Shown here in pieces: positions 1-23,925 of a stretch of DNA of 64,000 nt. This DNA comes from Escherichia phage vB_EcoM_phAPEC6. Position 1 is the stretch's first letter. Every line of letters begins with the position of its first letter. The stretch is from sequence record MK817115.1. One strand, given 5' to 3'. A model generated the notes under the pieces. That model did no database searches, had not been told where the DNA came from, and saw nothing but the letters and a program-made list of their open reading frames with translations. The position numbers and the translations under genes were made by a program.

Positions 1-1583
<1,583 letters not shown>

Positions 1584-2183: not shown

Positions 2184-2197
2184 TAGGAGGATAGATT

Positions 2198-2887: not shown

Positions 2888-2900
2888 TATTTTTCAAAAG

Positions 2901-2929
2901 AAAAGGAGAGCATTTGCTCTCCTTTTTTT
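2901..2929. terminator. Bidirectional intrinsic terminator (ggagagca-tt-tgctctcc flanked by A-run and T-run)
   Basis: Perfect 8-bp stem, 2-nt loop, T-run 2923-2929 and A-run upstream; sits between convergent genes. Confidence 0.7.
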
Positions 2930-2934
2930 ATATG

Positions 2935-3952: not shown

Positions 3953-3953
3953 A

Positions 3954-4160
3954 TCAGTAACCTCCAGTATTTGCAAACCATTTTCCACGGAAATAAAGAT
4001 TAGCACCCTTATCACCTGGAGTGAACACTTCCAACTTCATAGTTTTTTCACCATTACATTTAGGACAATCATGAGGTTCATCACGATTTGCAATTTTAAC
4101 AATTTTTTCCATGCTATGTTTGCATTCTTCTTTTTCACAACGATATGTATATAATGGCAT
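3954..4160 (-). CDS. Small zinc-ribbon protein (FmdB-like CxxxxC...CxxC)
   Basis: MPLYTYRCEKEECKH...HDCPKCNGEK; two Cys pairs. Confidence 0.5.
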   Translation of the reverse strand: MPLYTYRCEKEECKHSMEKIVKIANRDEPHDCPKCNGEKTMKLEVFTPGDKGANLYFRGKWFANTGGY

Positions 4161-4216
4161 TTTGTATTCCTTTACTTTTTAAATCAAACTAATTTGGGGA
4201 ACATAGTGTTCCCCGT

Positions 4217-4224
4217 TATTTATA
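4217..4224 (-). promoter_or_regulatory. T4-type late promoter box TATAAATA (minus strand)
   Basis: Exact tatttata on plus strand, ~57 nt upstream of the zinc-ribbon ATG; would drive zinc-ribbon, GroES-like and 245-aa genes. Confidence 0.4.
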
Positions 4225-4956: not shown

Positions 4957-5057
4957 TATATAATTCTCCGTTTTATTTGTTAATCAAAAAATGTTTTTAT
5001 GTAAGATTACTACAAGCACCATTATATCTCAAAAATGATGCTTGTCTCAATTTTTTA

Positions 5058-5357
5058 TCAGTATTTTGTATTCCAACGTTGAAGATAAGGCTTATCAATT
5101 GTAGAACTCATGCCAATTTTATCTCGTAATTTTTTCAAGTCTTTTAATGTATGTACATCATCGACAAAAACAACTTTACGCTTTTTCACAAGAGTGTAAA
5201 CATCAGCAATCTCTCCGTCAACTTCCACTGAACCAGTGCGAGTAAAACCCGCACCAATTAGAACTACTTCTTCATCATTATCATATGCTAGTACAGAATT
5301 AATGATACCATTACCTTCTAATACTTCACCAATACGCTTATATATATTACTCATCAT
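5058..5357 (-). CDS. Hypothetical protein (99 aa)
   Basis: Start ATGATG overlaps stop of the upstream small ORF. Confidence 0.45.
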   Translation of the reverse strand: MMSNIYKRIGEVLEGNGIINSVLAYDNDEEVVLIGAGFTRTGSVEVDGEIADVYTLVKKRKVVFVDDVHTLKDLKKLRDKIGMSSTIDKPYLQRWNTKY

Positions 5358-5496
5358 TTTTACCTTGTAATGAAGTCCATTCTACATATTTTTCCCATGC
5401 CTCATTTACACTTTCTTCAGTAAGATTCAACATCTCATTAGTGAAAGTATCGTTTACTTCGTCATAGTTTAGTTCAATTTCATTTACAATAACCAT
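5347..5496 (-). CDS. Small hypothetical protein (49 aa), not in ORF track
   Basis: ATG 5494-5496 with AAGGAG RBS 8 nt upstream; reads MVIVNEIELNYDEVNDTFTNEMLNLTEESVNEAWEKYVEWTSLQGKNDE; stop overlaps next gene start. Confidence 0.45.
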   Translation of the reverse strand: MVIVNEIELNYDEVNDTFTNEMLNLTEESVNEAWEKYVEWTSLQGKNDE

Positions 5497-5507
5497 ATTA
5501 TTACTCC

Positions 5508-8500
5508 TTACCAAGTGAAGAATCCATTGTTTACTGACGCAGTACTTTTTTCATGAATACCAATATCCATATCCAAAATACCAAAAATATTCTCTAATTT
5601 TTTAGTTAGAACAATCTCTTCCATTTTTTCAGTATCAAATGGTAGTTCCAAGAACCATTCTGGAAGATACTCAACACAGTCAATTGGATAACCAACAGCT
5701 TTAATTCCCATAGGATTATCTTTTAAGTTACAGACAATTACTTTTGTTCCATCCGTTACTTCTGGTACAGATTTATCATCATAAACTTCACGTAGACGGT
5801 TCCATTGGATACCAGCAAGAACGTGACCAACTTTACACTTACCAGTTAGCTGATATTCAGCCTCTAAATTAGTGTAGTTTTTTACAGTTTTTGGTGAACC
5901 TTTTTCATGTACAGGCATATCCTTAAATACGTCCTTAAACTCACGTACACGCTGTTTTAGCTGTTGTTCACTCTCACCTACCAGTAATGCGATTAGAGTC
6001 TCTTCTAGGAAGTTCTGGATGTATTTTGGCGTGTCTGAGCGTTTAATTTCAAGACCCATCGCTTTGATTTCACCTGGTTTACCATCAATATCTTTACGGA
6101 ACCCATCTTCCCAGTACTTCAGAATTGCATAACGTTTTTTCTTCAAGAATAGGCCACGCGAACCAACCATCTCAAGGTCTGCACCAACAATCTTACCTTT
6201 TTCAATACCAGTGTTGAACATCTCATGCATAAATGATGGGAAAGATTCACCAACTTCTTCACCAATTTTAATATACATATCAACAATCTCTTCTTTAGAT
6301 AGATTATATGGAATACCTTGTTCTTTCAGATAATGAGTTACACTAAAGTAAACTGAGTCAGTATCACCATAAATTACTGAACCACCTTGGTGGTTATATA
6401 CACCAGTAGTAATTTCATTGATACGACTTGCCATATGTTTGGTCATAGAACGTCCAGTTAATGTTACGGATTGACCTAAACGTTTGTCAAAAAAACGAGA
6501 ACCTTTGTTCAATAGTGCACCATATAGACTGTTTAGAAGAATCTTACGAATCTGTTGGTTCTGTTTCCAGAAAGCACTACGTTGTTTGAAGTAATCTTTT
6601 TCTTCTTTAGGACAGAAAATACGACCATCTTTTAGTACTAATCCGTTTTCTACAATCAACTTAGCAACTTCATCCCACTGTCCTTTACCAATTTCTTTAC
6701 GAAGTAAGTATACAGGATCATTATCATGAATATTAGTTCTAAACATTGTACCAGGGGTATAGTTTGATAGTAGTGGTTCAACTTTTTCATAGCCATTAAA
6801 CTCCCAACCATCAGTATACATATGTTTGTAGTCAATGACCATTTTTTGCTGTGCTTTACGTTCAGAATACCATTGAGTTAGAATGTCAGGAATTACACCA
6901 GACTTAGACTTATCAAAAAGTGTTCCGTTTGCACTAAGTACAATAGTACTATCTTCTGCAAAAATAATATCATATAGCTCTTTGCCCGTTGCTTTAAAAG
7001 AACTCCCATCTTCTAAATCAACAATCAATGTTTCTTCTGACTTTTCATGAACCATTGTAAATTCAACAGCAGCAAATAAACCATGCCATGCCGCAGTCCA
7101 ATCTGGTTCAAATGATTTAGATTTAGATTTGTTCTTCTGTTCTTGGATTTTAGCTGCAAGATACGCATCGGTGTAATCTTGACGTAATTGACCAAGAATA
7201 CATTCAGTACTCATACCCAAAGTACGTAGAACAGTAGGGTAAAGAGAGTTAAAGTCAGTACACCCAAGGTCACTTACAAGTCCTAGTACTGGATCTTGTA
7301 CCCATGCACCTGCTGCTTTTGCACTAATTTTCTCATCTTCATCTTCACCATCTTCACCATAATATTCCATTTCTGGATCAAACTCAAGATCATCTTTCGG
7401 TGCTTTGTTGAAAACAACTTCACCACGAGTATGTGCTAAGTTGATAATAGCAGTGTCGATTAGTGCTACTGAACCCATTGTTGTACTGATAAGTACACAT
7501 TCTTTGTGTGCAAGTCGATTGTGTAGGTTGATATAGTCACATTTAGCATCAATCTTTTTAAGAAGAATACTATCCTGTTTAGAATAACGCAAGAAAGTAA
7601 TGTAATCCTCTCTGTAAAGTTTATCCAATGAACCTTCATAGGATACTTTATTTTCTTTAGTTACTTTTTCAGCAATATAATCTAGTTTATAAGATTGTTC
7701 AACTTGACCAGCATGTTTCTTATACAAAGCCAAATAATCAAGATGGACGCGACCTACCAGATCATATGTTTGAACAGTTTTACCAAAGTTGTCTGCTTCA
7801 CGTGAATTTGGTTTTTTATTCCATAAACACCAACGAGCAGTTGTTGCTTCATTGAAGATTTTTTTAGTTCGATTGATCATATATGGAATATCAAAGAATT
7901 CACTATTCCATCCTGAAATAACATCAGAATCATCAATTAAACTAAAGAATTCCATAAACATTTCCTTTTCGTCTGTATATAAAATTACAGTACTGTTAGG
8001 ATCGTTTGTTTCTTCATTTAGTTGGCGAACAATATCTTGTGCTTCATAAATTTCCATATCAGCAGGTGGTAAAGTAAGTACATAATCCTTTCCAGTCCAT
8101 GATTGATATAGAGAAATAGCGGTTACTCGGTTAAACGGGTCTGATGGTGGAGCATAACCAAATTTCTTATGGAAATCAGTCTCGATATCGAAGAACACGA
8201 TGTTCAAATCGGGTGAACCTTTTCCCATATATTCTTTAGCTAATGTTTTAAATGTAATGTTACAGTCACTTTCAAAAATACGTAGACCTTCACTTTTGTG
8301 TTGCTCTACACTTTTATTCATTTGAGCTTGAGTTTGAAACTCAAAATGTTTAGCCATTGTACCATAAACAGTTTTATGTGTTCCTTGTGGGGATTCAACA
8401 TAATATTCATATACTGGATCTAATTCGCGTAGAATACGTTTACCATTCTTACGTTCAACTACATGAAGAATATCACCAGTACGTTTACGTTCCATATAAG

Positions 8501-8513
8501 CATCGATATACAT
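5508..8513 (-). CDS. Family B DNA polymerase with 3'-5' exonuclease domain
   Basis: FFDIETD (exo I), DFNSLYPT (motif A), YGDTDS (motif C); 1001 aa; AAGGGA RBS. Confidence 0.9.
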   Translation of the reverse strand: MYIDAYMERKRTGDILHVVERKNGKRILRELDPVYEYYVESPQGTHKTVYGTMAKHFEFQTQAQMNKSVEQHKSEGLRIFESDCNITFKTLAKEYMGKGSPDLNIVFFDIETDFHKKFGYAPPSDPFNRVTAISLYQSWTGKDYVLTLPPADMEIYEAQDIVRQLNEETNDPNSTVILYTDEKEMFMEFFSLIDDSDVISGWNSEFFDIPYMINRTKKIFNEATTARWCLWNKKPNSREADNFGKTVQTYDLVGRVHLDYLALYKKHAGQVEQSYKLDYIAEKVTKENKVSYEGSLDKLYREDYITFLRYSKQDSILLKKIDAKCDYINLHNRLAHKECVLISTTMGSVALIDTAIINLAHTRGEVVFNKAPKDDLEFDPEMEYYGEDGEDEDEKISAKAAGAWVQDPVLGLVSDLGCTDFNSLYPTVLRTLGMSTECILGQLRQDYTDAYLAAKIQEQKNKSKSKSFEPDWTAAWHGLFAAVEFTMVHEKSEETLIVDLEDGSSFKATGKELYDIIFAEDSTIVLSANGTLFDKSKSGVIPDILTQWYSERKAQQKMVIDYKHMYTDGWEFNGYEKVEPLLSNYTPGTMFRTNIHDNDPVYLLRKEIGKGQWDEVAKLIVENGLVLKDGRIFCPKEEKDYFKQRSAFWKQNQQIRKILLNSLYGALLNKGSRFFDKRLGQSVTLTGRSMTKHMASRINEITTGVYNHQGGSVIYGDTDSVYFSVTHYLKEQGIPYNLSKEEIVDMYIKIGEEVGESFPSFMHEMFNTGIEKGKIVGADLEMVGSRGLFLKKKRYAILKYWEDGFRKDIDGKPGEIKAMGLEIKRSDTPKYIQNFLEETLIALLVGESEQQLKQRVREFKDVFKDMPVHEKGSPKTVKNYTNLEAEYQLTGKCKVGHVLAGIQWNRLREVYDDKSVPEVTDGTKVIVCNLKDNPMGIKAVGYPIDCVEYLPEWFLELPFDTEKMEEIVLTKKLENIFGILDMDIGIHEKSTASVNNGFFTW

Positions 8514-8542
8514 CGTTTGTATTCCCTTACGTTTATTAAGTT

Positions 8543-8570
8543 AAAAAGAAAGCCTCCGTCATTGGAGGCT
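8543..8570 (-). terminator. Intrinsic terminator (agcctcc-gtcatt-ggaggct then T-run on minus strand)
   Basis: 7-bp stem; minus-strand T-run is the complement of aaaaagaa; lies downstream of the 109-aa ORF. Confidence 0.5.
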
Positions 8571-8592
8571 ATTTAATATATTTTAGTACTAA

Positions 8593-8895
8593 TTAGTAAT
8601 CATCTGCTTGTGGAAGATTATTAGTAACACTAAGAATAGTTTCGATATTATCGAGTTTATTTTGTTTGTCAAAGTAATCACCTTTGTACATACGTTGTGC
8701 AGCTTGTTTGATATCAGATGCATCGATACCAAGTTCATCAGAAACACTAGAAACAAAATCAGATAAGGATGCTTTGGTATCATCAATGAAAGTTAGTTGT
8801 ACAACAATGTTGTTAAGTGCGTCACCGAGACGTTTACGTTGTTCATCGTTTAGATCACGAATTTCAACTTTAACTTCTTTTTTAGATTTAGCCAT
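8593..8895 (-). CDS. Hypothetical protein
   Basis: ORF track 8593..8922; preferred start ATG 8893-8895 (MAKSKKEV) with GGAGAA RBS. Confidence 0.4.
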   Translation of the reverse strand: MAKSKKEVKVEIRDLNDEQRKRLGDALNNIVVQLTFIDDTKASLSDFVSSVSDELGIDASDIKQAAQRMYKGDYFDKQNKLDNIETILSVTNNLPQADDY

Positions 8896-8984
8896 TTTGT
8901 ATTTCTCCATGTGTGTTTTCAAAAAATGTCACCTCACCACAATCGGTGAGATGACTTAATTGTATCACGTCTTTACGTGTTGTC

Positions 8985-9500
8985 TCATTTTTTTTCCGGT
9001 TTAACTGGAAATGAAAATGTTTTCTTGATCATGTCTGCTGGTTTGATTGAATTCAATTGCGTTACATAATCTTTCAATTTTACAAACAATACAGCTTCTT
9101 CATCAGTTGCTAACTCAAGATCCATAGCAGTTTTTAAGTGTCCAAGTTCTTGAATTGCAATGTATTTCAAATTAGATAATTCATTTTTTAGGCGTTCAAT
9201 TTTTTCTTCTTTAGTTTCAATATAGTCATGAATAGTATTTCCATCGTAAACCATACCATAAAGTTTGTTAATATCACCATCATATTCAATTTCAGAAACA
9301 CTAAAACCTAAAGGTACTAGATCATAAATGTTATATGATGCTGAAACAATTAAACCGTTAATATCATACATAAATTTTGCTTTATTAATGTCAAACAATT
9401 CACGAGATTCATACCAATCCATACCTTCATCGGACATCATATACAAAGAATTAGGATTACCACCTTCTTTTTCATACATCTTAAAATTTGTTAGTTGCAT
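8985..9500 (-). CDS. Possible tail-fibre assembly/chaperone protein
   Basis: Directly downstream of a tail-fibre gene; start ATG 9498-9500 with AGGAA RBS that overlaps the fibre stop. Call is positional only. Confidence 0.3.
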   Translation of the reverse strand: MQLTNFKMYEKEGGNPNSLYMMSDEGMDWYESRELFDINKAKFMYDINGLIVSASYNIYDLVPLGFSVSEIEYDGDINKLYGMVYDGNTIHDYIETKEEKIERLKNELSNLKYIAIQELGHLKTAMDLELATDEEAVLFVKLKDYVTQLNSIKPADMIKKTFSFPVKPEKK

Positions 9501-9510
9501 TACACATTCC

Positions 9511-11121
9511 TTATTGTTGACGTACTGTTTCCCAGTTACCATTTATTTGCATTTGAACATAGCGATAACTAATTCGTTCTAAGTGAGTGCCTGAACTACC
9601 ATTAACAGAAATCCATACGCCATCCATAAATGCACCTTCTGGTGTATATGTCCATGAAGAATCAGGTATTTTACTTGTTTCAATACGTGCACTCAAACGA
9701 ATACTTTGTACGTTATTAGTACTAATTTGCAAAGTAACGTTGCCACTAGCATCAGCAGCAGTACCGTTAATTGAACGAACAATATTTTTACCACCAACAG
9801 TAGCTGAGTTGTTAGAAACAGTTAATGATGGAGCAGCTAAAGTACCAGAAGAGTTTACAGTAACTTCTGCTCCACCGGAACGTAATCTCAATGTATTATT
9901 TGAAGAGTTATGATACACTGCCGCACGCTCACCACCGCTTGCGTTACGGAAATATAGAACTAATGATGTATCATTTGACTTAATTGACGCACTGTTTGCA
10001 ATAGTCAATGAACCAGTCATTGTATCACCAGTTTTTAGTACATAACGAGTGTTTGCAACTTTTTCACTCAATGCGACGTTAGATTCAGCAATGTTATATA
10101 GATATGCAACGTTAAAGTGTTCCACATCAATGTTACTAATACCATGATAGTGTGGTTGGTTTCCACCAAGTGTGTTAGTGTTTCCACTAAATGAGTGAAT
10201 GTGGTCTGGTGCTTCGTTAATGTTATTGATTACAGTTGGTATACCGTTATCATTACTTGAAGTTAACGCATTTAGACCACTACGGTCCATACCTTTTAGT
10301 GCTTGACTATGACCATGACGACCAGCAGCCCCTGTGGTCCCACTAAAACTAAATGAGTGTGATGGTAATTGGGCAACACTTAATACTGTGCCGCTAATAT
10401 TACCGCTACTACCAATAACACTATCAGTTTTAGTTACACCTGATGTGGATATCCCTTTTAAGTACGCGTTTTGGTTAAGGTTTGGTACTTGTTTGGTAAT
10501 TGTACCATTTTCCCCCTCCCATTGCCACCACATACCATCAGCAAAACACCAACCGTCAGACGTTTTCCACGGAGCACCTTGTGAACCGTTTCTCCCACTT
10601 TGTCCATTCGATTGTCCTGACATTTGTTCACGTATACTAGCAACAGATTGACCAGAAGTCAATGAATATTGTGTAATAGCACCTGGTTTAAGTGAAGTGT
10701 AAAGACCAGTTGGACCAGAACCACCACTAGAAGCAGTAGGGAATACAATGTTTAAGTTTGTTCCACTAATACTTGCACTAGGAACAGTACTACTACTGTA
10801 TGTTACACTTTCTACTTTTAAATTTAATTTTCTGTTTACTTCATCTAATGAAATTCTAATTGGTTCCAAAATAGTATCAGTATCGTATACTGCAATCCAA
10901 CTTGTACCGTTATGATACTTCAAAACTAATTCGTTTCGATCAAAAACCATTGCACCTTGTTCACCAGTAGGTAACGTTTGTACTGGTATAATAACTGATG
11001 ACGAATTAAAACGAATAGGTCTTGGGTTAGTTGGTGTACCACCAAGCACTATTAGTTCTAAAGATCCATTAGCACCAGTACTGGTCATTGTATCCAATGG
11101 GTTATTAAAACTTATGCTCAT
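9511..11121 (-). CDS. Tail fibre protein
   Basis: Ser/Thr/Asn/Gly-rich; KTGDTMTGSLTI motif, recalled as typical of phage fibres; AAAGGGA RBS. Confidence 0.55.
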   Translation of the reverse strand: MSISFNNPLDTMTSTGANGSLELIVLGGTPTNPRPIRFNSSSVIIPVQTLPTGEQGAMVFDRNELVLKYHNGTSWIAVYDTDTILEPIRISLDEVNRKLNLKVESVTYSSSTVPSASISGTNLNIVFPTASSGGSGPTGLYTSLKPGAITQYSLTSGQSVASIREQMSGQSNGQSGRNGSQGAPWKTSDGWCFADGMWWQWEGENGTITKQVPNLNQNAYLKGISTSGVTKTDSVIGSSGNISGTVLSVAQLPSHSFSFSGTTGAAGRHGHSQALKGMDRSGLNALTSSNDNGIPTVINNINEAPDHIHSFSGNTNTLGGNQPHYHGISNIDVEHFNVAYLYNIAESNVALSEKVANTRYVLKTGDTMTGSLTIANSASIKSNDTSLVLYFRNASGGERAAVYHNSSNNTLRLRSGGAEVTVNSSGTLAAPSLTVSNNSATVGGKNIVRSINGTAADASGNVTLQISTNNVQSIRLSARIETSKIPDSSWTYTPEGAFMDGVWISVNGSSGTHLERISYRYVQMQINGNWETVRQQ

Positions 11122-11161
11122 GTATAAATCCCTTTATGATTAATATATACTATATTTATTC

Positions 11162-11488
11162 CTATAGCAAGTCGTTATCCATATCATCCCACACAGAATC
11201 AATGATGTTTGCTGCTATCTTTTTAGACATTTTAAACCACTCCGTGTTTGGTTGTCTAGTTGCATTCATTTGTTTAAGCCTTTTATGTATCTCTTTTTCA
11301 GCTAAACGTGCGTCTTCAAAGTGAACTTCATGATAAACTTCAAAATCACGAAACGGGGTAGCTGTCTGATACGTTCTCAAACGCTCTGTCATTTCAGATT
11401 TAGAAGTGAAACCAATCTTAACATAGTCAGGCCATGCAGAGTTTATTATAACATAACATATCTGTGACATAGATTCAATCTCCATCAT
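11162..11488 (-). CDS. T5orf172-domain (GIY-YIG superfamily) protein, free-standing
   Basis: CYVIINSAWPDYVKIGFTSK ... ERLRTYQ ... EVYHE matches the T5orf172 pattern as recalled; start uncertain (11488 or 11470). Confidence 0.5.
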   Translation of the reverse strand: MMEIESMSQICYVIINSAWPDYVKIGFTSKSEMTERLRTYQTATPFRDFEVYHEVHFEDARLAEKEIHKRLKQMNATRQPNTEWFKMSKKIAANIIDSVWDDMDNDLL

Positions 11489-11509
11489 TAATATGGAGAT
11501 ATTTATCTA

Positions 11510-11860
11510 TCAACTAATAGTGAATTTTAAACCAATATCAATTAAACGTTGAAAAGGATTATGTGGCTGAAATTCCGATGGTTCTTGTGCAATGTTTAGC
11601 ACAGGAGCATCAGAATGCAGCACCGACATACGTTCTCTATAATGATCGATGTATTCTTCATACAACATATCTTCAGTATGTGTATTAAGTATATCTTCTA
11701 TGAAAGAATCTAAACTATAATCCAATCTATCATCATTATAATACAATGTTTCAGTGGCTTCATCATATCCAACTAACGTACCATAAGGAACATTTATTTC
11801 TATATTTGAGTACTGACTCTTTAAGTACTCTTCTCTATTAAATTTGTATACAGTTAACAT
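11510..11860 (-). CDS. Hypothetical protein
   Basis: ORF-track start at 11869 is TTG; ATG 11858-11860 has AAGGAG RBS 10 nt upstream. Confidence 0.4.
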   Translation of the reverse strand: MLTVYKFNREEYLKSQYSNIEINVPYGTLVGYDEATETLYYNDDRLDYSLDSFIEDILNTHTEDMLYEEYIDHYRERMSVLHSDAPVLNIAQEPSEFQPHNPFQRLIDIGLKFTIS

Positions 11861-11883
11861 CCGTGTCAACTCCTTTAGATTGT

Positions 11884-12981
11884 TTACTTAAAGTTATTTA
11901 CAATTTTCAGTACAGATTTTAGATACTTTTCATCAAACGTTTCAGTAAATCCTGACGGCAACTCTTCAGTACTTACTACTCCACTTTCAATGTATTTCTT
12001 TATGAACTTTTCCAACAATAATGGTTGATTGCCATCCTCAAAGTAACGTTCTACCAGTACTTCATGCTCGAACTCAGAATTGCGGCTTTGTTCATTGACA
12101 CGGCGTTTCATATCACCTGTAATTCCATATTTGTACACCGTCTTATCATTATTAGTTAATTTTTGAACATAGAAATATCCAGGTTTTGATGGTTGATATC
12201 CATATTCCCCACATGATGGACATCCTTTACCAGCCATATGTGCTTTTGGTTGTTGGGAGAAGACACCATGAGTCGGACATACAATATCAATATAATTCTC
12301 GCTTAAAGTATATTCAACCAAGCTATAATCATACTTATGGTTATGGATAGGCGACACAAGTTCAATGAAACGTTCAGTGCTTCTTCCACCTTTACCAGAA
12401 CATGTACCGCAGCCAGTTTTACCCTTCAATAAAGTTTGGGCTGAAACAGTCCATTCGTGTTTACCGCGTGTACAGTATACGGTAACTTCCGTCTTATTGT
12501 TAACATATTTGGTATTTGGAAATTCAAACGCATTGCCATAGTTTTCTTTTACTTTTGCGATGAATGATTCAGTACTGTATGCTTCATTTTTATTACATAC
12601 AGGACAGCCCTTACCAGAAAGAAATTTGTTTGGTGTAATTTCAAAGTAATCGTTATGTTCTTCATCAGTGCAGAATAGTGTTACTTTTGATATAGCGTTA
12701 GTGTAATTTAGTTTATCAAATTTGAATTTATCTTTACCAAATTTAGTTTCTACAGTACTGATGAATGTGTCGTTGTTTGAACGCTGTGACATGTTTGAAT
12801 AACATGATGCACATGTACATGCAATGTGACGAAGTGCAGGTTTGGTGTTTTCTTTCCCACACTTGTTACATTTTACTGTTGTTTTACTTGCCTTGAATAC
12901 TAAAGTACTGAAGTCAAATTCTCCATACTTAGCAGTCATTTGGTTGATAAACTCGTCTTTGTTGATACTTACGTTTGGCAT
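11884..12981 (-). CDS. Four tandem Cys/His zinc-binding repeats plus C-terminal GIY-YIG-like module (putative homing-endonuclease-like)
   Basis: Four ~50-aa repeats each opening F-I and ending G-C-x-x-C (GCPVCN, GCGTCSG, GCPSCG) with a C...H...CxxC pattern; C-terminus GYFYVQ...YKYGITGD...RR resembles GIY-(x10)-YIG-R. Confidence 0.45.
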   Translation of the reverse strand: MPNVSINKDEFINQMTAKYGEFDFSTLVFKASKTTVKCNKCGKENTKPALRHIACTCASCYSNMSQRSNNDTFISTVETKFGKDKFKFDKLNYTNAISKVTLFCTDEEHNDYFEITPNKFLSGKGCPVCNKNEAYSTESFIAKVKENYGNAFEFPNTKYVNNKTEVTVYCTRGKHEWTVSAQTLLKGKTGCGTCSGKGGRSTERFIELVSPIHNHKYDYSLVEYTLSENYIDIVCPTHGVFSQQPKAHMAGKGCPSCGEYGYQPSKPGYFYVQKLTNNDKTVYKYGITGDMKRRVNEQSRNSEFEHEVLVERYFEDGNQPLLLEKFIKKYIESGVVSTEELPSGFTETFDEKYLKSVLKIVNNFK

Positions 12982-13051
12982 AATTCTGTCTCTATGTTTG
13001 TGTGTATGTGCGTATTATACATAACCAAAAACATCATGTCAATGTTTTTAA

Positions 13052-13086
13052 TAAAAAAAGGGACTCCGAAGAGTCCCTATTGTTTT
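13052..13086. terminator. Intrinsic terminator (gggactc-cgaa-gagtccc with T-runs on both strands)
   Basis: 7-bp stem, 4-nt loop; immediately downstream of the capsid gene on the minus strand. Confidence 0.65.
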
Positions 13087-13121
13087 TAATTTCTTGATTA
13101 AATCTTTTAAATCGATTACAA

Positions 13122-14297
13122 TTACATGAAAGTAACGTTTTTGATAGCGATTTTGCTGTAGTAGTCAGCAGCGTTACCAAGAGATGAAGTACTGTCGGTC
13201 AACTGTACATAGCCATATCTGGTTAGAAAAGTTGTAACGAGTTCCCCAGTGTTAGGGTCCATTACAGTACCAGAAGCCATTAGTGGGATGTATGGGCAAT
13301 AGAATACACCAGCATCAGTTTCCGCATTACCTTTATAACCAATTAGAATATCTTCTGCATCACTAGCATAGGTATCAACGAAAATACGCATAGTGCTGTT
13401 TAGAGTACCTACAAACTTAACGTTAGTTGGTGCTTCGAAAGTACCTTCAGTGGTACGTGCAAAGCTAGAAGTAGTAGCAGATTGTAGAATGGTTAGTGCA
13501 GTTGGGGAAACAACAGCCCAGTTTGCAGCACCACGCTTAGTACGACGAGCAACTTCGTTTGCTTGACGGTTAATTAGAGTTGCTAGAGCAGCGTGCTCAT
13601 CACCAACGAAGGTTGCAACACCAGTAACTTTAGATTGGTCATAAGTTACAGCAGCAGCACCAGGTAGTGCACGTAGACGGCTTAGTAGCTCTTGGTCGAT
13701 TTCTACAGTAACTTCTTGAGCGATTGCAGCCATTAGTTCTGCTTCAACGTCAACACCATGTTGGGATTGAGCATCTTGTGCAGATTCAACAGTCCAACGT
13801 GCAGATAGACGACGAGATTTCGCTTCAACAGTTTCACGTAGAATACGGATGTTAACGCGACGACCCATAGTACCTTCTAGTTGGCTAGTAGGAGCAGCTT
13901 GTGGGTTGCTATTATCCGCATTTAGATCACCAGAGTAAGATTTAGCGATTTTGTATGGAGAAAGCATTTCTTCACCAGCGATTACACCAGGTGCGTTATC
14001 AGCATATTGTACACGTAGGGTGTGGATCTGACCAACTGGACCAGTCATAGGTTGAACACCGATGATTTCGTTAGCAATAACGGTTGGCATTACACGACGC
14101 ATAATTGGTAGAATCACTTTGTTTAGAGTAGCGATGTTACCAGCGGTAGTTGCACCAGAAGTTGCGGATTCAGTTAGCATAACTTTACGATGGTTATCAA
14201 GAACAGTTTCCATTACAGACTTACGAGTACCCTGTAGACCTTCAACTAGTTTCTCTTTTACTGCTACCCATTTGGATTCATTTAGTAGTTGTGACAT
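13122..14297 (-). CDS. Major capsid protein
   Basis: T4 head-gene order (portal, gp67-like, gp68-like, protease, scaffold, this gene); exact TATAAATA box and AAGGAG RBS; strongest codon bias in window; own terminator. Confidence 0.7.
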   Translation of the reverse strand: MSQLLNESKWVAVKEKLVEGLQGTRKSVMETVLDNHRKVMLTESATSGATTAGNIATLNKVILPIMRRVMPTVIANEIIGVQPMTGPVGQIHTLRVQYADNAPGVIAGEEMLSPYKIAKSYSGDLNADNSNPQAAPTSQLEGTMGRRVNIRILRETVEAKSRRLSARWTVESAQDAQSQHGVDVEAELMAAIAQEVTVEIDQELLSRLRALPGAAAVTYDQSKVTGVATFVGDEHAALATLINRQANEVARRTKRGAANWAVVSPTALTILQSATTSSFARTTEGTFEAPTNVKFVGTLNSTMRIFVDTYASDAEDILIGYKGNAETDAGVFYCPYIPLMASGTVMDPNTGELVTTFLTRYGYVQLTDSTSSLGNAADYYSKIAIKNVTFM

Positions 14298-14342
14298 TAT
14301 ATATCTCCTTAAAGATGTTATATTCGTTTTTCAGTATGATAT

Positions 14343-14350
14343 TATTTATA
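14343..14350 (-). promoter_or_regulatory. T4-type late promoter TATAAATA for capsid gene
   Basis: Exact box ~45 nt upstream of ATG; the 16-mer AGTATGATATTATTTA around it recurs at 17110-17125. Confidence 0.6.
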
Positions 14351-14388
14351 GAACTGAAAAATTTGATTATTAAAATGCTTTAAAATGT

Positions 14389-15504
14389 TTATTTTTTATT
14401 GATACCTGAAAGAACATCGAGTTCTTTTAGGAATGCCATATCGTCAGCGGTCATTTCTTCGCTTTCAACAATAGCCTGACGGTTGCCAGTGATTACTTTA
14501 CCTTCTGCAAGAGTTTTCTTAGCGGAAGACTGAACTGCTTGACGAGTGGTAGCAGATTCATTTACTTTAGTACCGTTAAGTACTGACTTATGGTACTTGC
14601 TGAAATCTTCTTTAAGCTTTTCAGTAGGTGAAGTAGCTAGAAGGGATTCCATAATTTGTTTTTGCTGTGCCGTTAGTGGTTTTACTAGTTCAGACATAAT
14701 CGCATTACGTGCTTGTGCATCTTCCATAATACGTAGTTTGGTTTTAGCAGCTTTAACGGCATTAGCAGTTTCATGTAGTTCTTGCTTAACTTGAGCAATT
14801 TCATCTTCTTTAGATTTAATTGATTCAGTTAGGGAACGTAGCAATGAGTTTTCATTAAATTGTTTGACATTAAACTCTTGAGCAAATGCTTCAAAGATTT
14901 TACGACCAAACATATTTTGTTTTGCTTCCACTAGATCTTGTTTCAACGCATATAGATTCTTCTGAGTGGTTTCTGCAATATATTTAGCAGCACTTTCAGA
15001 TGTACGTTTGATGAAGTTATTACGAGCTTCAGCAATTTGACGTGAACCTTCAGCAAGTAGTTTAACGCGAGTTTCTACTAGTTGGCGTTTTTCAGTGTGG
15101 AATTCTTTTAGCTCTTCTGCTAGGATACCGTTAGAAAAATTAACGAATTTACCCATGCATTCATGAAGATGCTTACGTTCTTTACGCATTTGTTTAACTT
15201 CTTCAGCCAAAACAGAGTTTGAAAACGCAGAGAAATTGCTTAGTGTTTTACGTAGAGTTACACGATCTTCAACGAGACGTTTTTTCTCTTCATATACAGC
15301 ACCCATTTCTTCAGCAATGACTTGAGTAACCATAGTGTTCAAACCTTCGGTTAGTTCAGCCAAATCTTGCTGATAACGGCCTTTCATTTCTTCACGCATC
15401 TCTGCGGCTAGTGTATTCTTTTCTTCATTCCATGCTTCCTGAATTAGCTGTTTTGCCTCATCAGAAAGAGATGATTCTTTTAGAAGCTTTTCTAATTTAG
15501 ACAT
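14389..15504 (-). CDS. Prohead scaffolding protein
   Basis: Ala/Glu/Lys/Gln-rich, coiled-coil-like; between protease and capsid genes; AAAGGAGAG RBS. Confidence 0.6.
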   Translation of the reverse strand: MSKLEKLLKESSLSDEAKQLIQEAWNEEKNTLAAEMREEMKGRYQQDLAELTEGLNTMVTQVIAEEMGAVYEEKKRLVEDRVTLRKTLSNFSAFSNSVLAEEVKQMRKERKHLHECMGKFVNFSNGILAEELKEFHTEKRQLVETRVKLLAEGSRQIAEARNNFIKRTSESAAKYIAETTQKNLYALKQDLVEAKQNMFGRKIFEAFAQEFNVKQFNENSLLRSLTESIKSKEDEIAQVKQELHETANAVKAAKTKLRIMEDAQARNAIMSELVKPLTAQQKQIMESLLATSPTEKLKEDFSKYHKSVLNGTKVNESATTRQAVQSSAKKTLAEGKVITGNRQAIVESEEMTADDMAFLKELDVLSGINKK

Positions 15505-15551
15505 TCGTTCTCTCCTTTAAGTACTGAAATATCTGTACTTCAACATACAGA

Positions 15552-15559
15552 TATTTATA
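15552..15559 (-). promoter_or_regulatory. T4-type late promoter TATAAATA for scaffold gene, overlapping a 9-bp inverted repeat
   Basis: Exact box; inverted repeat atatctgta / tacagatat at 15529-15554. Confidence 0.5.
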
Positions 15560-15570
15560 TTTTTAAAATG

Positions 15571-16194
15571 TTAACCTTTTAATTTCTTGAAAAAATCGTA
15601 TATTTCAGAATCTAAATTATTTACTTTTTTAGATTCAGTGATTTTTTTAGAACTATTACAAGGTGATCCGTACTTACTCATCAGAGATTCAAATACCGCT
15701 GTTGGGTATGCTTCTGGAGCACTAGGTTGAGCAACAATATCAATAGTGATAATTTCAAAATCAGAAACTATTCCATTATAATCAACGTTACCGGAACCGC
15801 GAGAACTTACACCAAGTTTTACACCAGCCTCTAGCATTTTACGGATATTCTGACCATGTGCAGTATCAAGTAGTTTGATTTCTGCCATACCATTAGCACC
15901 TTCCATCCAAACCTTAGTAATCATTGCTGCTACACGGTCTAGGTTAATAGTTAGTGTTTCTGGATGGTCACATTCAACAAGAATGCTTTCACCTTTAGCT
16001 AAACGCTGGTTCATGTTATTTACTGCCCTTGTAATTTCAGATAAAGGGTAAATTCTCTCGTTCAAATTTCGTTGGTCGGCTTGAATAGCAATACCACGAA
16101 GATAGCAGTCACGCCCACCAAATCCATTATCACGATGTTCCAAAACAACTTTAGAATCATTGAATGAAGACCATTCACGAATCATACTACTCAT
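15571..16194 (-). CDS. Prohead protease (gp21-like by position)
   Basis: Sits between acidic core protein and scaffold as in T4; AAGGAG RBS; no catalytic motif confirmed. Confidence 0.5.
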   Translation of the reverse strand: MSSMIREWSSFNDSKVVLEHRDNGFGGRDCYLRGIAIQADQRNLNERIYPLSEITRAVNNMNQRLAKGESILVECDHPETLTINLDRVAAMITKVWMEGANGMAEIKLLDTAHGQNIRKMLEAGVKLGVSSRGSGNVDYNGIVSDFEIITIDIVAQPSAPEAYPTAVFESLMSKYGSPCNSSKKITESKKVNNLDSEIYDFFKKLKG

Positions 16195-16214
16195 AATGAT
16201 CTCCTTTCAGATAT

Positions 16215-17063
16215 TTATTTTAGTTTAGGTTGTGCTTTGCTTAGTGGTGATTTAGAATTAGATGCAGTAGTTTTTGGTGCTTTAACATCTTTCATTTCAC
16301 CGCGAGCATTTTTACCAAGATCTAGGCTATCTTTTGGTAGAACAGATTTATCATCTAGGTCTAGTAGTGGTGCTTGGTCAGTTTTCTTAGCGAATTTAAC
16401 TGGCTCTGCTCCTGCTACTGGAGATTTAGCTTCTGGTGCTACTGGAGATTTGGAATGAGTGCCAGCTTTTTCTTTCTTATCAACTGGAGCAACTTTTTCT
16501 AGTTTGAAGGATTCACCGAATTTTTCATCGCCGAATTCAACATCAGCAAATTCGTCGTCACCGTCAACACCAACTTCTTCTTCGCTATCTTCTACTTCTT
16601 CTTCAGAATCTAGATCAACTTCACCGTCACCGATTTCATCAAACATTTGTTGTAGGCCACGGAAAGCATCTTGGATTGATTCCCATTGGTCTTCGGAAGG
16701 AACATCAGCATCAGCTTTCACTTCAACGTCAACATCGTCTTCACCGTCACCATCTGCATCAGCAGAGAATTCAACTTCTTCTTCTGCACTTTCATCTTCT
16801 TCACCAAGGGTGTATTCGATTTCAGCATTTAGACCTTCGTCTGGTTGTACATCAAAATCTTCGTCAAGCTTTTCTTCATCTTTGACTTTAACTTCGACTT
16901 CACAATCTTCATCGTCGTCTTCATCTTCCATGCTTTCTTCTAGTTGTTTGTTAATTTCTTGAGCTTGCTCAACGAAATACTTACGCATTTTTTTATCAGC
17001 AATATCTTGTTCGCCATTTGCAAACGCCGCAATTGCTTCTTGTAGTAGTTTTAAATTCGCCAT
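16215..17063 (-). CDS. Acidic prohead core protein (gp68-like)
   Basis: Very Asp/Glu-rich; start ATG 17061-17063 with GGAGGA RBS (ORF track 17075); upstream 16-mer shared with capsid promoter. Confidence 0.45.
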   Translation of the reverse strand: MANLKLLQEAIAAFANGEQDIADKKMRKYFVEQAQEINKQLEESMEDEDDDEDCEVEVKVKDEEKLDEDFDVQPDEGLNAEIEYTLGEEDESAEEEVEFSADADGDGEDDVDVEVKADADVPSEDQWESIQDAFRGLQQMFDEIGDGEVDLDSEEEVEDSEEEVGVDGDDEFADVEFGDEKFGESFKLEKVAPVDKKEKAGTHSKSPVAPEAKSPVAGAEPVKFAKKTDQAPLLDLDDKSVLPKDSLDLGKNARGEMKDVKAPKTTASNSKSPLSKAQPKLK

Positions 17064-17164
17064 TATATCCTCCATAGATATATTACATTCGTATAAAGTA
17101 TGATATTATTTAGTACTGAATAAAATCGCCTTTTTTAAAAGCTTTAAAAAGTGCGATTTTCGAT

Positions 17165-17392
17165 TTACATTAACCCAGAACCGTCACCAGTTGGTGCAGC
17201 GGCATAAACAACTGCAACCACATTTTTGCGGCGTTGTTCTTCATGTGCTTTAAATTCACGGTACTTTCTTAAGTTGTTTAATACTTGTAATGTTAGTTTC
17301 GGTTTTCTGGAATCAGTAATTTTATATACGTTCTGATCATCTTCAGGGTCGTACATTGAATCACTGCTAGATTCAAAGATGTCCTTTAACAT
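17165..17392 (-). CDS. Small prohead core protein (gp67-like by position)
   Basis: 75 aa immediately downstream of portal; AAGGAG RBS. Confidence 0.35.
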   Translation of the reverse strand: MLKDIFESSSDSMYDPEDDQNVYKITDSRKPKLTLQVLNNLRKYREFKAHEEQRRKNVVAVVYAAAPTGDGSGLM

Positions 17393-17465
17393 TTGATCTC
17401 CTTGAAATATGCATTATAAATGAGGGTAAAAATAAACCCTCATTCTTATACACTGTTATTTATGT

Positions 17466-19205
17466 TTAAAAAGAATTGCCTAAATTATTAGGGTCGAAAC
17501 CACCACTTCCACTCTGTTGCTCTTGGTATTCGGCATCAGCACTTTCCAAATTACCTTCTCCATCAATACCAAGATCCATTCCAGGATCATTTGGAGCATC
17601 AATACCAACAGACTGCAATCCTGCGGAATCTTCTTCACCACCAGAAGGTTGGGAACCATCTTGTGGATTCTCTTGTAACCACATTTGTTCATTCTTAACA
17701 ATATCAGCTTTAGAAAAGCCCATTTTTTCAAGAATTGTTTGTTTCGCCATATAAGGCAAGTCATTAAGAGGAAGATATGTATTAATTAGTTTAGCATCTA
17801 GTTCAGCTTTACGATAAGAAGCTAAGTTAATAGGTGGATTCATAATAACTTCAAAAGATGAAGTACTAATGTTATATCCATTTTTAACCATAAATCTTTT
17901 GAATTCAGCATCAAAATGTTTTGCAACTAAACGTTGATAACGCATACATTGATTATTGAATCGCAATTCACTTGCCATAGCTTGTGTAGCACCATCACCA
18001 AATAATGAAACACCACCATCATCTGGACCTTGTGGTAGATATGAAGCTGGTATTTGAAGACCACGAATCAATTTATTATTGAAATAACGTAAGTCATCAA
18101 TTTGTCCTAAGTTATCACCGCCTGGTAATGTTTGAACATCTGAACCACGACCTTCAGAAGTTTGTGGGAAAAAGTAGTCTTCTAAAATGCTTAATGGATT
18201 ATACGCTGCATCCATTAGTGAAGTACTTCCACCTTTGTTTGAAGGTATTCTACGCTGGTGGATTTCATTTTTAAATCTTTCAACATAAGCCATCGCTTGG
18301 TGTGCTTGCATATCACCAACATCAATTTTAAATACACGACGCTCAGGTGCACGTTGTACACGATAAATTATGATACTATCTTCCAGAAGTTCTTTTTGCT
18401 TATAGACTTTAAATACGTCCTCAAGTATACTAGTACCAAAAGGCCATACCCCATCTTGTCCTGTATTTAGCGTTAGATGAATTACGTGTTCTGCACCAAC
18501 AGGAATAACGTCTAATTGACCGTTAGTACTGAATGGATCAGCAGTATTTCCTTGACTTGTAAAACCAGATGCACCACCCGCAGCTACTGAACCACCACCA
18601 CCCATTGTTGTCGGAATAGCTCCTGGATAAGCGGTTTTATCAAATCCTACTTGAAGGTTACTAAAAACTTTATCTTTCAAATTTAATGATACGTCACGTA
18701 TATAATAAATTACTGGTGTTTTACCAGTGGCTTCGTTAACAAATACTTGCTCAACATTTTTGGGACTTACCCAATACCAATCGAATGTTTCTGGATCTCG
18801 AATGAAAAATTGATCACCATATTTCAGAAGACCACGCACAATTTCATACATTCGTGTTTTAAAATCATTTTGTTCAGTCCATGCATCTAAACGATCTTCA
18901 ATAGTAGTTACTTCAGTATCACCAATATCATCTTTATATTTGATTTTATATGGTAAACCAAAATCTTCAGTACTTTGGGTACAAAAGTCAGCAATTATAT
19001 TCAATGCAGTTCTAATTTCAGGATCTTGGTCCATTTGCTCATACTGACTATAACGCTCAGTACGGTTTGCCAATCCATTATATACAACAGGAAGATAGGA
19101 AGCGAAATTTGTTTTCGTTCCTGTTGATTTATTGCTATTACTGGACTGATTCGGGATGGTCGATAGTTTAGACCTTCCCACTGTCATATGTCGTTTCCAA
19201 CTCAT
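17466..19205 (-). CDS. Portal protein (gp20-like by position)
   Basis: 579 aa at head of the T4-ordered head module; AAGGACG RBS; assignment is by synteny and size. Confidence 0.55.
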   Translation of the reverse strand: MSWKRHMTVGRSKLSTIPNQSSNSNKSTGTKTNFASYLPVVYNGLANRTERYSQYEQMDQDPEIRTALNIIADFCTQSTEDFGLPYKIKYKDDIGDTEVTTIEDRLDAWTEQNDFKTRMYEIVRGLLKYGDQFFIRDPETFDWYWVSPKNVEQVFVNEATGKTPVIYYIRDVSLNLKDKVFSNLQVGFDKTAYPGAIPTTMGGGGSVAAGGASGFTSQGNTADPFSTNGQLDVIPVGAEHVIHLTLNTGQDGVWPFGTSILEDVFKVYKQKELLEDSIIIYRVQRAPERRVFKIDVGDMQAHQAMAYVERFKNEIHQRRIPSNKGGSTSLMDAAYNPLSILEDYFFPQTSEGRGSDVQTLPGGDNLGQIDDLRYFNNKLIRGLQIPASYLPQGPDDGGVSLFGDGATQAMASELRFNNQCMRYQRLVAKHFDAEFKRFMVKNGYNISTSSFEVIMNPPINLASYRKAELDAKLINTYLPLNDLPYMAKQTILEKMGFSKADIVKNEQMWLQENPQDGSQPSGGEEDSAGLQSVGIDAPNDPGMDLGIDGEGNLESADAEYQEQQSGSGGFDPNNLGNSF

Positions 19206-22597: not shown

Positions 22598-22606
22598 TTT
22601 TCATAT

Positions 22607-22634
22607 AGCCAGCACATTGTTGCTGGTTTTTTTT
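22607..22634 (+). terminator. Intrinsic terminator (ccagca-cattgt-tgctgg plus T8)
   Basis: 6-bp stem followed by eight T. Confidence 0.7.
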
Positions 22635-23178
22635 GGTTTTAAACTACAGAATTATTTGAATTGAATTATGAAAGGATTAATTTTAATATTATTGGATTCA
22701 TCTAACTCATTTCATTCGTTAGCTGAAGAATATTCGTTACTACGTAACTCATATTCATTTAATTAAATTAATTATAAAGAACTTTAAAAGATTTAATACT
22801 TGACGGGATTTGTTGAGGACATTTTCATCCCCCCGCAGGGGAATGAAGACAATAAAAAAGAGACAATGAAGTCTCTATTTCTTGACGCTGATGGTTTCAG
22901 CATTTATTGTATTGCGAATTTCTTAAAAATATATTAAGAACGAAAGCGGGTTGCTCTGTTTCTCTCTATCGCAGTCATGTGCAACGGTCGTCAGTCTTAA
23001 TCATCCTGACACTCACCTGAAAGTCTATACAATCAAACTTCAGGCTGTTTATTAAAATCACTTAATAAACTCCCTTAGCAAATCTGGTAAGGTGCGATCC
23101 TTATATGTCTATCTAGGAACTCTCTGTATGCTTATCGGAGTTCTTTATTGAGCCGCATTGCCGTGAGGGGTTCAAACT

Positions 23179-23265
23179 ATGCCCACATCTAACGGGTTTC
23201 TTTTGCTCATCGCACTGTTGAACTGCTCATCTGCCATCTACATTTTCGATAGGATCAGGTTCTAA
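23179..23265 (+). CDS. Candidate micro-ORF, 28-aa hydrophobic peptide (speculative)
   Basis: GAGGGG 8 nt before ATG; reads MPTSNGFLLLIALLNCSSAIYIFDRIRF; uses rare codons (agg, ccc, ggg), so may not be coding. Confidence 0.15.
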   Translation: MPTSNGFLLLIALLNCSSAIYIFDRIRF

Positions 23266-23395
23266 TTTATATGCATTTCTGCATTCAACAGGATTGTCAT
23301 TACTACAACAAACATTATAGCACAAACTTTAAAGTTGTCTCACTATTTTTATAAAAATATTCATTAAGTACTTAAAATATTGCAAATAACTAATC

Positions 23396-23403
23396 TATAA
23401 ATA
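23396..23403 (+). promoter_or_regulatory. T4-type late promoter TATAAATA for endonuclease VII gene
   Basis: Exact box ~30 nt upstream of ATG 23434. Confidence 0.5.
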
Positions 23404-23433
23404 TTTTGATAACAAATAGTTTGGTGAGGAATT

Positions 23434-23925
23434 ATGAAAAAAAGATTAAAAGATAGTAAGGATGCTGCAAACTATCGAAACGAATTGCTAAAGAAACAAA
23501 ATGGAATAGATCCTATAATTAAAGAACCAATAACTAAACCAGTACTGGATCACTACCACTATGGTAACCAACATTGTAGACAAGTTCTTCAAAATGAAGT
23601 CAATGCTTGGGAAGGAAAGGTACAAAACAGCTTCAATCGATATATGAAGCACTTAACTGATAAACCATTATATGAGGTACTCAGAAATCTTGCTGATTAC
23701 TTAGAGCGTAATAACAGCATTCCTGACGATGAACAAGTTATACATCACACTGCACTAACTGTGGATGTTAATAAGTTTAAAAGGCTTCCAGCAACACAGC
23801 AAAACGCGATTCTGGAAGGGTTAGGAGTTGTCCCTGGTAGTAACACTACTGCTCGTGTAAAGCAAGCTAGAAAGCTGATTAAGGACGGTAAATTAAATAT
23901 GGTTGATATAAAAAAAGGGAGCTAA
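23434..23925 (+). CDS. Endonuclease VII-like Holliday junction resolvase (gp49-like)
   Basis: LDHYHYGNQHCRQVLQNEVNAWEG resembles the T4 endo VII core as recalled; GGTGAGGA RBS. Confidence 0.6.
   Translation: MKKRLKDSKDAANYRNELLKKQNGIDPIIKEPITKPVLDHYHYGNQHCRQVLQNEVNAWEGKVQNSFNRYMKHLTDKPLYEVLRNLADYLERNNSIPDDEQVIHHTALTVDVNKFKRLPATQQNAILEGLGVVPGSNTTARVKQARKLIKDGKLNMVDIKKGS

Follow-up and report, generated by a model that had tools for sequence, protein, structure and literature searches.

Among the systems closest to the locus described here are the ColE1 RNA II pre-primer, of ~555 nt, and the R-loop origins oriF and oriG of phage T4, together with the T4-type replisome. Others are the "large ornate" non-coding RNAs (ncRNAs) of the ROOL, GOLLD, and OLE type, which constitute Rfam families and have been the subject of cryo-electron microscopy work (PMC12286853), and ncRNA001-004 of phage PA5oct, a phage described as 121Q/PBECO4-related, in which these highly transcribed RNAs of 236-619 nt, free of open reading frames (ORFs), were defined by RNA-seq (PMC7318152). 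The locus itself is the gap at positions 22598-23433 of a 64,000-nt stretch (the window) of the genome of Escherichia phage vB_EcoM_phAPEC6 (MK817115.1). It is interpreted here, with somewhat better than even confidence, as a self-contained gene for a large structured ncRNA of ~455 nt that would be transcribed from the minus strand, fold, and act in trans. The best reading of this RNA is as a new family of large structured ncRNAs, matching no described RNA family.

The 1.2 kb around the gap are 100% identical to Escherichia phage PBECO4 (KC295538/NC_027364), an Asteriusvirus and RaK2-like jumbo myophage with a genome of 348 kb; window positions equal positions in the PBECO4 record minus 282129. 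All RaK2-like jumbo phages have the module family, each genome with 4-5 copies that share one orientation and lie at syntenic positions. Its core (22900-23330) finds blastn matches in 70 phage records, all of them RaK2-like jumbo phages, which include Asteriusvirus, Mimasvirus GAP32, CBB, Eneladusvirus, Munch/7t3-like phages, Xanthomonas XaC1, and Alcyoneusvirus RaK2. Alignment to related phages, suggested in the earlier note, shows the core to be conserved across genera: distant genera carry it at 70-77% identity in 4-5 mostly unannotated places per genome, and the flanks are less conserved than the core. Scanning IMG/VR by pattern and searching with a profile gave 63 matches, 55 of them full length and 49 distinct, and the nhmmer profile recovered all copies.

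Throughout these copies, conserved blocks alternate with variable hairpins that show compensatory changes, and column-pair covariation scans find the same helices in three independent alignments. The curated model (alignment A1, 49 sequences) has 19 helices and 80 base pairs. Standard pairs occupy 94.8% of its cells, compared with 75.4% for shuffled partners and 35-45% for partners slid by 1-3 columns, and the covariation score is 0.504 for the model, 0.165 for shuffled partners (none of 500 shuffles is as high), and 0.055-0.096 for slid ones. Both sides have changed in 63 of the 80 pairs (718 cells). The shuffle control is subject to the kinship of the sequences; nevertheless, the control with slid partners and the large number of independent pair types argue that the structure is real and that a nucleic-acid fold is under selection, kept by compensatory substitutions. 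With its 80 pairs and no conserved ORF, the element is a non-coding unit with a complex covarying fold of several hundred nucleotides.

Five of the interactions are pseudoknots, crossing others. H1 (22906-12:23027-33) joins a 5′ segment through 7 base pairs to the hairpin loop of H6 (23018-24:23037-43), 115 nt away, with 334 Watson-Crick cells versus 2 others. H2 (22913-17:22969-73) and H14 (22942-46:22962-66) each cross H4 (22950-54:22981-85), H7 (23105-07:23156-58) crosses H9 (23149-53:23205-09), and H10 (23212-14:23224-26) crosses H11 (23215-17:23289-91). The model further includes H3 (22920-24:22936-40), H5 (22989-93:23007-11), H8 (23117-22:23138-43), H12 (23231-33:23256-58), H13 (23236-38:23248-50), H15 (23161-64:23192-95), and H16 (23168-70:23182-84). 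A variable hairpin proximal to the 5′ end of the RNA (23268..23284, minus strand; UGCA-GAAA-UGCA) is kept by compensatory changes, and its minus-strand loops are of the GNRA type, GAAA, in several independent lineages (the window copy, L021, L040, and L017).

The RNA quite probably derives from the minus strand, as judged from wobble pairs, folding energies, and promoter placement. G·U cells on the model columns number 174 if the RNA is read from the minus strand and 59 if it is read from the plus strand, and the minus:plus ratio reaches 38:0 in H5, 39:0 in H14, 14:0 in H2, 24:0 in the hairpin Hc (described below), and 11:0 in H6. In many lineages, a plus-strand reading puts A·C mismatches into the long stem of H6 and into the variable module. 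Comparison of minimum free energies (MFEs) hairpin by hairpin is confounded by base composition, and shuffle z-scores were used instead; these are −3.75 on the minus versus −2.34 on the plus strand for H6 and −3.90 versus −2.39 for the variable module. RNAalifold yields −48.9 kcal/mol for the minus and −34.0 for the plus strand, and the single-sequence MFE z-scores are −3.12 and −2.20, respectively.

The predicted primary transcript spans 22853..23307 on the minus strand, with both ends deduced from the promoter and terminator. Transcription would start near 23307, ~7 nt past the sequence TGAGACA-N16-TGcTATAAT, which is composed of an extended -10 element (TGcTATAAT, 23314..23322) and, 16 nt upstream of it, a -35-like element (TGAGACA, 23336..23342; family consensus TGrrAC[A/G]). 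A promoter scan of the minus strand returns this unit as GAGACA-16-TGcTATAAT with 10 of 12 matches and the TG extension, and positions T33, A34, T35, A36, and T38 of the -10 element are invariant in 49 of 49 copies. In this copy, the transcript would end at 22876-22853, where AGAGAC-ttcatt-GTCTCT followed by UUUUUUAUU forms a putative intrinsic terminator of canonical type (22853..22876, minus strand) that is only weakly terminator-like on the plus strand. The minus strand thereby holds the parts of a predicted sigma-70-type unit, namely the -35 and extended -10 elements and then AGAGAC...GTCTCT with TTTTTATT. The minus-strand terminator is present in 30 of the 49 copies, those of types A and B, and absent from types C and D. 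All five pairs of its stem (helix 18) change on both sides, and in one lineage (L023/L040/L042) the stem includes a U·G pair readable solely on the minus strand.

A "divergent RpoD-like" promoter class with the -35 element TGAAACG has been described for phage CBB; it also occurs in GAP32 and is concentrated at DNA-synthesis genes (PMC5259590). The module promoter matches this class. In PBECO4, TGrrAyr-N15-17-TATAmT has 22 minus-strand occurrences and 3 plus-strand ones, among them all four modules and sites beside the genes for the clamp loader, polymerase, primase, and single-stranded DNA-binding protein. The placement of this promoter class ahead of replication genes suggests that the RNA is co-expressed with them, so that it would probably be made in the early-middle phase alongside the replisome. 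Of extended -10 promoters in general (TGnTATAAT), the whole PBECO4 genome has 86 on its minus strand and 21 on its plus strand.

PBECO4 has four co-oriented paralogous modules of ~550 nt each, which are pairwise 61-73% identical and fill four of the largest intergenic gaps of the genome. Copy A is the one in this window, at ~305 kb of PBECO4 and upstream of the endonuclease VII gene. Copy B (~37.95-38.5 kb) occupies the gp056/gp057 gap, copy C (~93.65-94.13 kb) occupies the gp149/gp150 gap and adjoins the dam methylase gene, and copy D (~195.1-195.55 kb) lies between gp355 and the sigma-factor gene gp356. No paralogous repeats were found inside the 64-kb window, the other copies being outside it. 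The A-type copy of GAP32, Yen9-04, and an uncultured phage (L019) sits between a baseplate gene and endoVII-gp46/47, while the C-type copy of RaK2 and XaC1 adjoins dam; within each genome, all module copies are co-oriented. PBECO4 has two other large unannotated gaps, at 151710-153706 (~2.0 kb) and 156817-157841 (~1.0 kb), in the "early" region of small ORFs (L006 1710-3706 and 6817-7841). In these two gaps, the nhmmer family profile found no match and ARAGORN no tRNA.

Several conserved parts of the module lie to the left of the core. The AT-rich left block (22640..22795, ~23% GC) contains short palindromes as well as TCGTT repeats. Its sequence is kept within genus groups, and it also travels with the module in the E. 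coli island copy described below; it may act at the DNA level or correspond to the far end of read-through transcripts. It is followed by box 1 (ACTTGACGGGATTTG, 22798..22812), which has the consensus yTGACGnGrTTTG in the alignments, and by the Hc hairpin (CCCC-GCA-GGGG, CCCCUGCGGGG on the minus strand; 22831..22841, pairs 22831-34:22838-41). Few stretches of the module are as well conserved as these two. In plus-strand orientation, box 1 resembles the -35 element of a sigma-70 promoter; the sequence upstream of it is AT-rich, and the accompanying -10 element (TTTCAT here, TATCAT in other genera) is weak. The box 1 motif is found in PBECO4 at each of the four module loci and three times elsewhere, once on the plus strand at 56626 in the gp076/gp077 intergenic region and twice on the minus strand. 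The nearly invariant Hc hairpin is 94.9% paired, all of its variation being from C-G to U·G when read on the minus strand, and its minus-strand fold is the more stable one in 25 of 36 distinct sequences. Beyond the terminator lies box 2 (CTTGACG, 22881..22901), a direct repeat of box 1 that is fused to a small variable hairpin (GCTGA-tggtt-TCAGC) whose sequence differs between lineages.

Intact copies also reside in integrase-bearing islands of at least six Enterobacteriaceae; the island counts, which rest on local blastn and nhmmer searches, are lower bounds. In E. coli, two complete chromosomes have the full-length module, with box 1, Hc, terminator, box 2, core, and a TGaTATAAT promoter, on an island of ~10 kb between ybaA and ffs; the strains that carry it include LR-29-1 and EEC_W5 (NZ_AP027515, NZ_CM130020). 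The same island holds a tyrosine integrase gene split by IS3, a resolvase, a DUF2188 protein, and a DuOB-DUF488-mSLOG/DUF4326 operon. In strain LR-29-1 (L161 7649-9380), this operon of DuOB (dual OB), DUF488, and mSLOG/DUF4326 (NADAR-like) is typical of nucleotide/ADP-ribose conflict systems, and tandem AACGATCGATAAT / CCGATCGTTATAA repeats of iteron- or operator-like appearance lie at L161 11350-11400, in the 700-bp spacer between the island module and the next minus-strand gene. At least five more copies emerged from a GTDB genome scan and local searches, in Citrobacter amalonaticus, Silvania hatchlandensis, a Buttiauxella metagenome-assembled genome (MAG), strain RIT714, and an Enterobacteriaceae MAG. 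The islands are mutually related: the module lies between an integrase gene (tyrosine or large serine) and a convergent gene for a CI-type S24 repressor, past which are a Ner-like winged helix-turn-helix gene and a membrane protein gene. The island genes that flank the module were considered as candidates for a shared protein partner, and no homologues of them were found in RaK2-like phages. Island copies retain the phage-type TGAAAC -35 element and 88-92% of the pairs and, measured against the closest phage copy, have undergone 4-14 double compensatory changes; for four of the six, that phage copy is the A-type one of the uncultured RaK2-like phage L019. This pattern of pair retention indicates that the island copies stayed under structural selection. 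The non-coding module alone moved, as a unit, and the direction was probably from phage to island.

The element was compared with known RNA classes. Rfam 15 (4227 models) gave no matches at the gathering threshold on either strand of the 64-kb window, and at E ≤ 10 the region 22600-23440 produced only chance matches to terminator-type and sRNA models, with 5-21 bits versus cut-offs of 40-102. No model of the large RNA families ROOL, GOLLD, OLE, raiA, and HEARO matched in the gap even at E ≤ 10. The earlier note had failed to fold a tRNA from the gap, in agreement with ARAGORN, which detects no tRNA or tmRNA gene in the window; the sole tmRNA match in Rfam scores 5.5 bits versus a cut-off of 47. 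A group I or II intron or other self-splicing insertion is rejected: no intron model matches at E ≤ 10, the flanking ORFs are complete and unrelated, and the element occurs in four different intergenic contexts. A transposable element or miniature inverted-repeat transposable element is likewise dismissed, as terminal inverted repeats and target duplications are absent, the only repeats are AT-rich and of low complexity, and the positions are syntenic across genera. The nhmmer family profile showed no similarity to the 16-kb PA5oct region with ncRNA001 and ncRNA002 (best E-value 1.6). No earlier description of the element was found in the full-text literature searched, jumbo-phage papers included.

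The earlier note had characterized the gap as ORF-free, and this holds true: with both strands checked, the longest overlapping ORF has 45 amino acids. An 830-bp stretch without an ORF is not in itself unlikely at ~33% GC, because stop codons are frequent in such DNA; it is the conservation of the core, not the absence of ORFs, that goes beyond chance. The GC-richer core is also confirmed, at 0.375-0.415 over 22800-23300 versus 0.235-0.25 in both flanks. Two copies of the gctcatc repeat are indeed present, at 23205 and 23225, and fall within the 3′ strands of helices H9 and H10. The two TTGACG hexamers exist as described, at 22800 and 22882 (previously given as 22883), the second followed after 17 nt by TATTGT. 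Their proposed role as -35 elements fares less uniformly, as the hexamers do belong to conserved boxes (yTGACGnnGATnG), while TATTGT is not conserved as a -10 element and is instead the covarying 5′ strand of H1. The plus-strand promoter that the second hexamer would form with TATTGT (P2, TTGACG-17-TATTGT) is therefore discarded as the promoter of the RNA; helices also begin upstream of its predicted start.

The 28-amino-acid micro-ORF at 23179-23265 is likewise present on the plus strand but does not behave as a gene: its start codon is found in 37 of 49 copies, its length ranges from 3 to 57 amino acids, and its frame shifts. A minus-strand ORF of 28 amino acids (23061-22975) is rejected as well, its start codon occurring in 10 of 49 copies. 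In SHEFM2K, E9.1, JP4, SD-15_S21, and other records, two or three "hypothetical protein" coding sequences (CDSs) are annotated atop the core homologous to 22900-23330, and the GenBank record of UE-S1 places a "repeat_region" over part of the element. The CDS calls over the RNA core are probably false, and the annotation of several GenBank records would be corrected accordingly. Of the functions envisaged in the earlier note, a small-RNA locus is right as to the kind of element, an RNA, but not as to an RNA that is small and driven from TTGACG on the plus strand; the element is instead predicted to be ~455 nt long, pseudoknotted, and most likely on the minus strand.

The surroundings of the gap are only loosely described as lying "between late operons", the neighbors being a baseplate-type operon on one side and, on the other, the recombination genes gp46/47 together with that for endonuclease VII. 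A small plus-strand ORF ends at 22597, and endonuclease VII starts at 23434. The upstream plus-strand operon has a predicted intrinsic terminator at the left gap edge, outside the RNA module (22607..22634, plus strand; stem AGCCAGCA/TGCTGGTT and then a T run), which is annotated at the same site in phages G17 and UE-S1. Upstream of endonuclease VII is a T4-late-like motif (TATAAAAATA, window 23336-23360), comparable to the late promoters ("ATAAATA") that have been suggested in CBB and GAP32. The ATG of endonuclease VII is directly preceded by a ribosome-binding site, GGTGAGG (23424-23430). Two divergent promoters would share one spacer, because the TATAAAAATA motif overlaps the -35-like element of the minus-strand RNA promoter. 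Elsewhere, window positions 1-17871 and NC_027364 282130-300000 are not identical as strings, which may reflect a near-identical isolate or a small indel.

The reading as a gene for a trans-acting RNA is preferred because of features typical of RNA genes: a fold in which five helices cross and the junctions are invariant, a promoter and a terminator that are discrete, and a moron-like placement in the islands. Several observations weigh against it. G·U pairs in H3 (7:20, minus:plus) and H16 (1:14) favor the plus strand, as does the pair 23108:23155 (on the plus strand, U·G in 32 and U-A in 4), and H8 and H5 fold slightly better on that strand. Transcript data for any RaK2-like phage were not found in the literature searched, and the transcript, its strand, and its ends are deduced. 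The highly conserved box 1 and Hc (22798-22848) lie past the terminator, where a simple promoter-RNA-terminator gene leaves them unexplained. The dispersed, co-oriented, and syntenic placement is equally typical of cis-acting sites, and no protein partner or target was found for the RNA. Finally, some copies have a hairpin and T run 4-8 nt after the -10 element, so that the predicted start falls within the 5′ arm of this strong hairpin; it looks like a terminator for upstream transcription that is overlapped by the RNA's own promoter. The copies in question are C-type, cluster-3, and L033 copies (e.g., L004, L016, L025, and L033; A1 columns 40-80).

The main rival, itself rather unlikely and in line with the origin region considered in the earlier note, is a cis-acting replication-origin module in which the promoter would fire a structured pre-primer into Hc, box 1, and the AT-rich block. 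After the manner of ColE1 RNA II or T4 oriF/oriG, a persistent RNA-DNA hybrid would be processed, the phage having two RNase H proteins, and would prime the leading strand; four or five such origins would serve the 350-kb genome. The dispersal of the copies (~38, 94, 195, and 305 kb), their shared orientation, and the retention of their positions across genera fit such a role, as do a promoter class that is that of DNA-synthesis genes and the location of one copy next to the endoVII and gp46/47 recombination genes. The conserved DNA downstream is not RNA-like, with the box 1/box 2 direct repeats, a C6/G6 hairpin, and a TCGTT block of 23% GC, all of which the simple gene model leaves unexplained; the whole module with its flank has been captured by islands without recognizable replication genes. 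Known R-loop origins, however, need no five-pseudoknot fold with invariant junctions, and the module has no initiator-type gene linked to it. A promoter and an AT-rich block are both there, as such an origin would require, but 30 of 49 copies have an efficient-looking terminator between the RNA and the site where the hybrid would form. The strand evidence bears on a further alternative, regarded as improbable, in which transcription from box 1 (promoter TTGACG-17-TTTCAT/TATCAT) would proceed rightwards through the core to give the functional RNA, leaving the minus-strand promoter for other uses, such as an antisense transcript or neighboring genes. Besides the wobble pairs and the stability of H8 and H5 noted above, this alternative can claim that the -35 element in box 1 is good and preceded by AT-rich DNA, and that the first scan for covariation, in which invariant G·T pairs at the helix ends were counted, tended towards the plus strand. 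It conflicts with the overall G·U tally of 174 to 59, with A·C mismatches in H6, H14, H2, H5, and the variable module, with the weakness of the box 1 -10 element, and with the invariance of TGnTATAAT on the minus strand. Moreover, a bidirectional terminator and the box 2 hairpin would halt plus-strand transcripts ahead of the core, past which there is no terminator.

A long structured 5′ leader, resembling a riboswitch or attenuator and controlling downstream minus-strand genes in cis, is very unlikely. Copies B, C, and D are followed by a minus-strand gene, and types C and D have no terminator, both in favor of a leader. Copy A and its orthologues, on the other hand, have no downstream minus-strand gene, their neighbors being convergent plus-strand genes; the island module faces a convergent repressor gene, the downstream genes are mutually unrelated, and copies A and B do have a terminator. 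The decayed insertion or gene considered in the earlier note is ruled out by structure-preserving evolution, cross-genus synteny, and the absence of terminal repeats, and hardly any probability attaches to a non-functional remnant (decayed gene or old insertion) or a cluster of micro-ORFs. The ORF-free character of the region and the small hypothetical CDSs that some GenBank records call there would agree with a remnant. Against this stand the structure-preserving double substitutions in 63 of 80 pairs, a conservation across genera that is higher than in the flanks, the lack of terminal inverted repeats and target duplications, and the inconstant start codon, frame, and length of the micro-ORFs; the slid-partner controls (35-45% paired) argue against an artefact of covariation.

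If the locus is indeed an RNA gene, the RNA most likely works in trans as a folded molecule, and could do so as a protein-binding scaffold, as a ribonucleoprotein (RNP), or in a catalytic or ligand-binding capacity. Activity would then reside in a surface made of its conserved junctions and loops, whereas its variable hairpins would either be decoration that is tolerated or determine paralog specificity. The best guess for the target process is replication/recombination or host takeover. A bolder proposal, for which the chances appear slightly better than even, is that of a new class of multiply pseudoknotted RNA, core to all RaK2-like jumbo phages as a ribozyme, RNP scaffold, or origin-licensing factor, whose module and phage promoter would have been stolen by islands and be switched on by an infecting phage to act as a decoy, in defence, or in hijacking the phage. 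The element itself would bring a new class to the few large structured RNAs listed from bacteria and phages, of which several have proved to be strikingly built. The shared replication promoter class, the origin-like layout, and the capture by islands point to replication initiation or phage-island conflict. Jumbo phages are under development for therapy, and most of their genome content is unexplained.

The element resembles ROOL and GOLLD in kind alone. Like ROOL, GOLLD, and OLE, which are often phage- or prophage-borne, it is an independent unit of hundreds of nucleotides with a covarying pseudoknotted fold and unknown function; unlike them, it has no Rfam match, is found in jumbo myophages of Enterobacteriaceae, occurs in 4-5 dispersed copies, and is flanked by conserved DNA boxes. 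With ColE1 RNA II and T4 oriF/oriG it shares a constitutive or middle-class promoter and, as predicted here, a non-coding transcript of ~0.5 kb directed towards a G/C-rich element and an AT-rich region, and the likeness to T4 extends to the RNase H and T4-like replisome encoded by this phage and to the several sites per genome. The RNAs of those systems, however, have simple stem-loops or no conserved fold, whereas five helices cross here, a terminator precedes the AT-rich block, and there is no sequence similarity. PA5oct ncRNA002 is comparable in its length of 451 nt and its co-orientation with most genes (PMC7318152), although the PA5oct RNAs have no reported structure or paralogy. The island module, in turn, resembles a phage "moron" in that it is self-contained, has its own promoter (and a terminator where present), and sits between convergent repressor and integrase genes. 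It differs from a moron in that its cargo is a structured RNA and not a protein gene, and in that the module is an ancient core feature of the jumbo phages rather than an accessory one.

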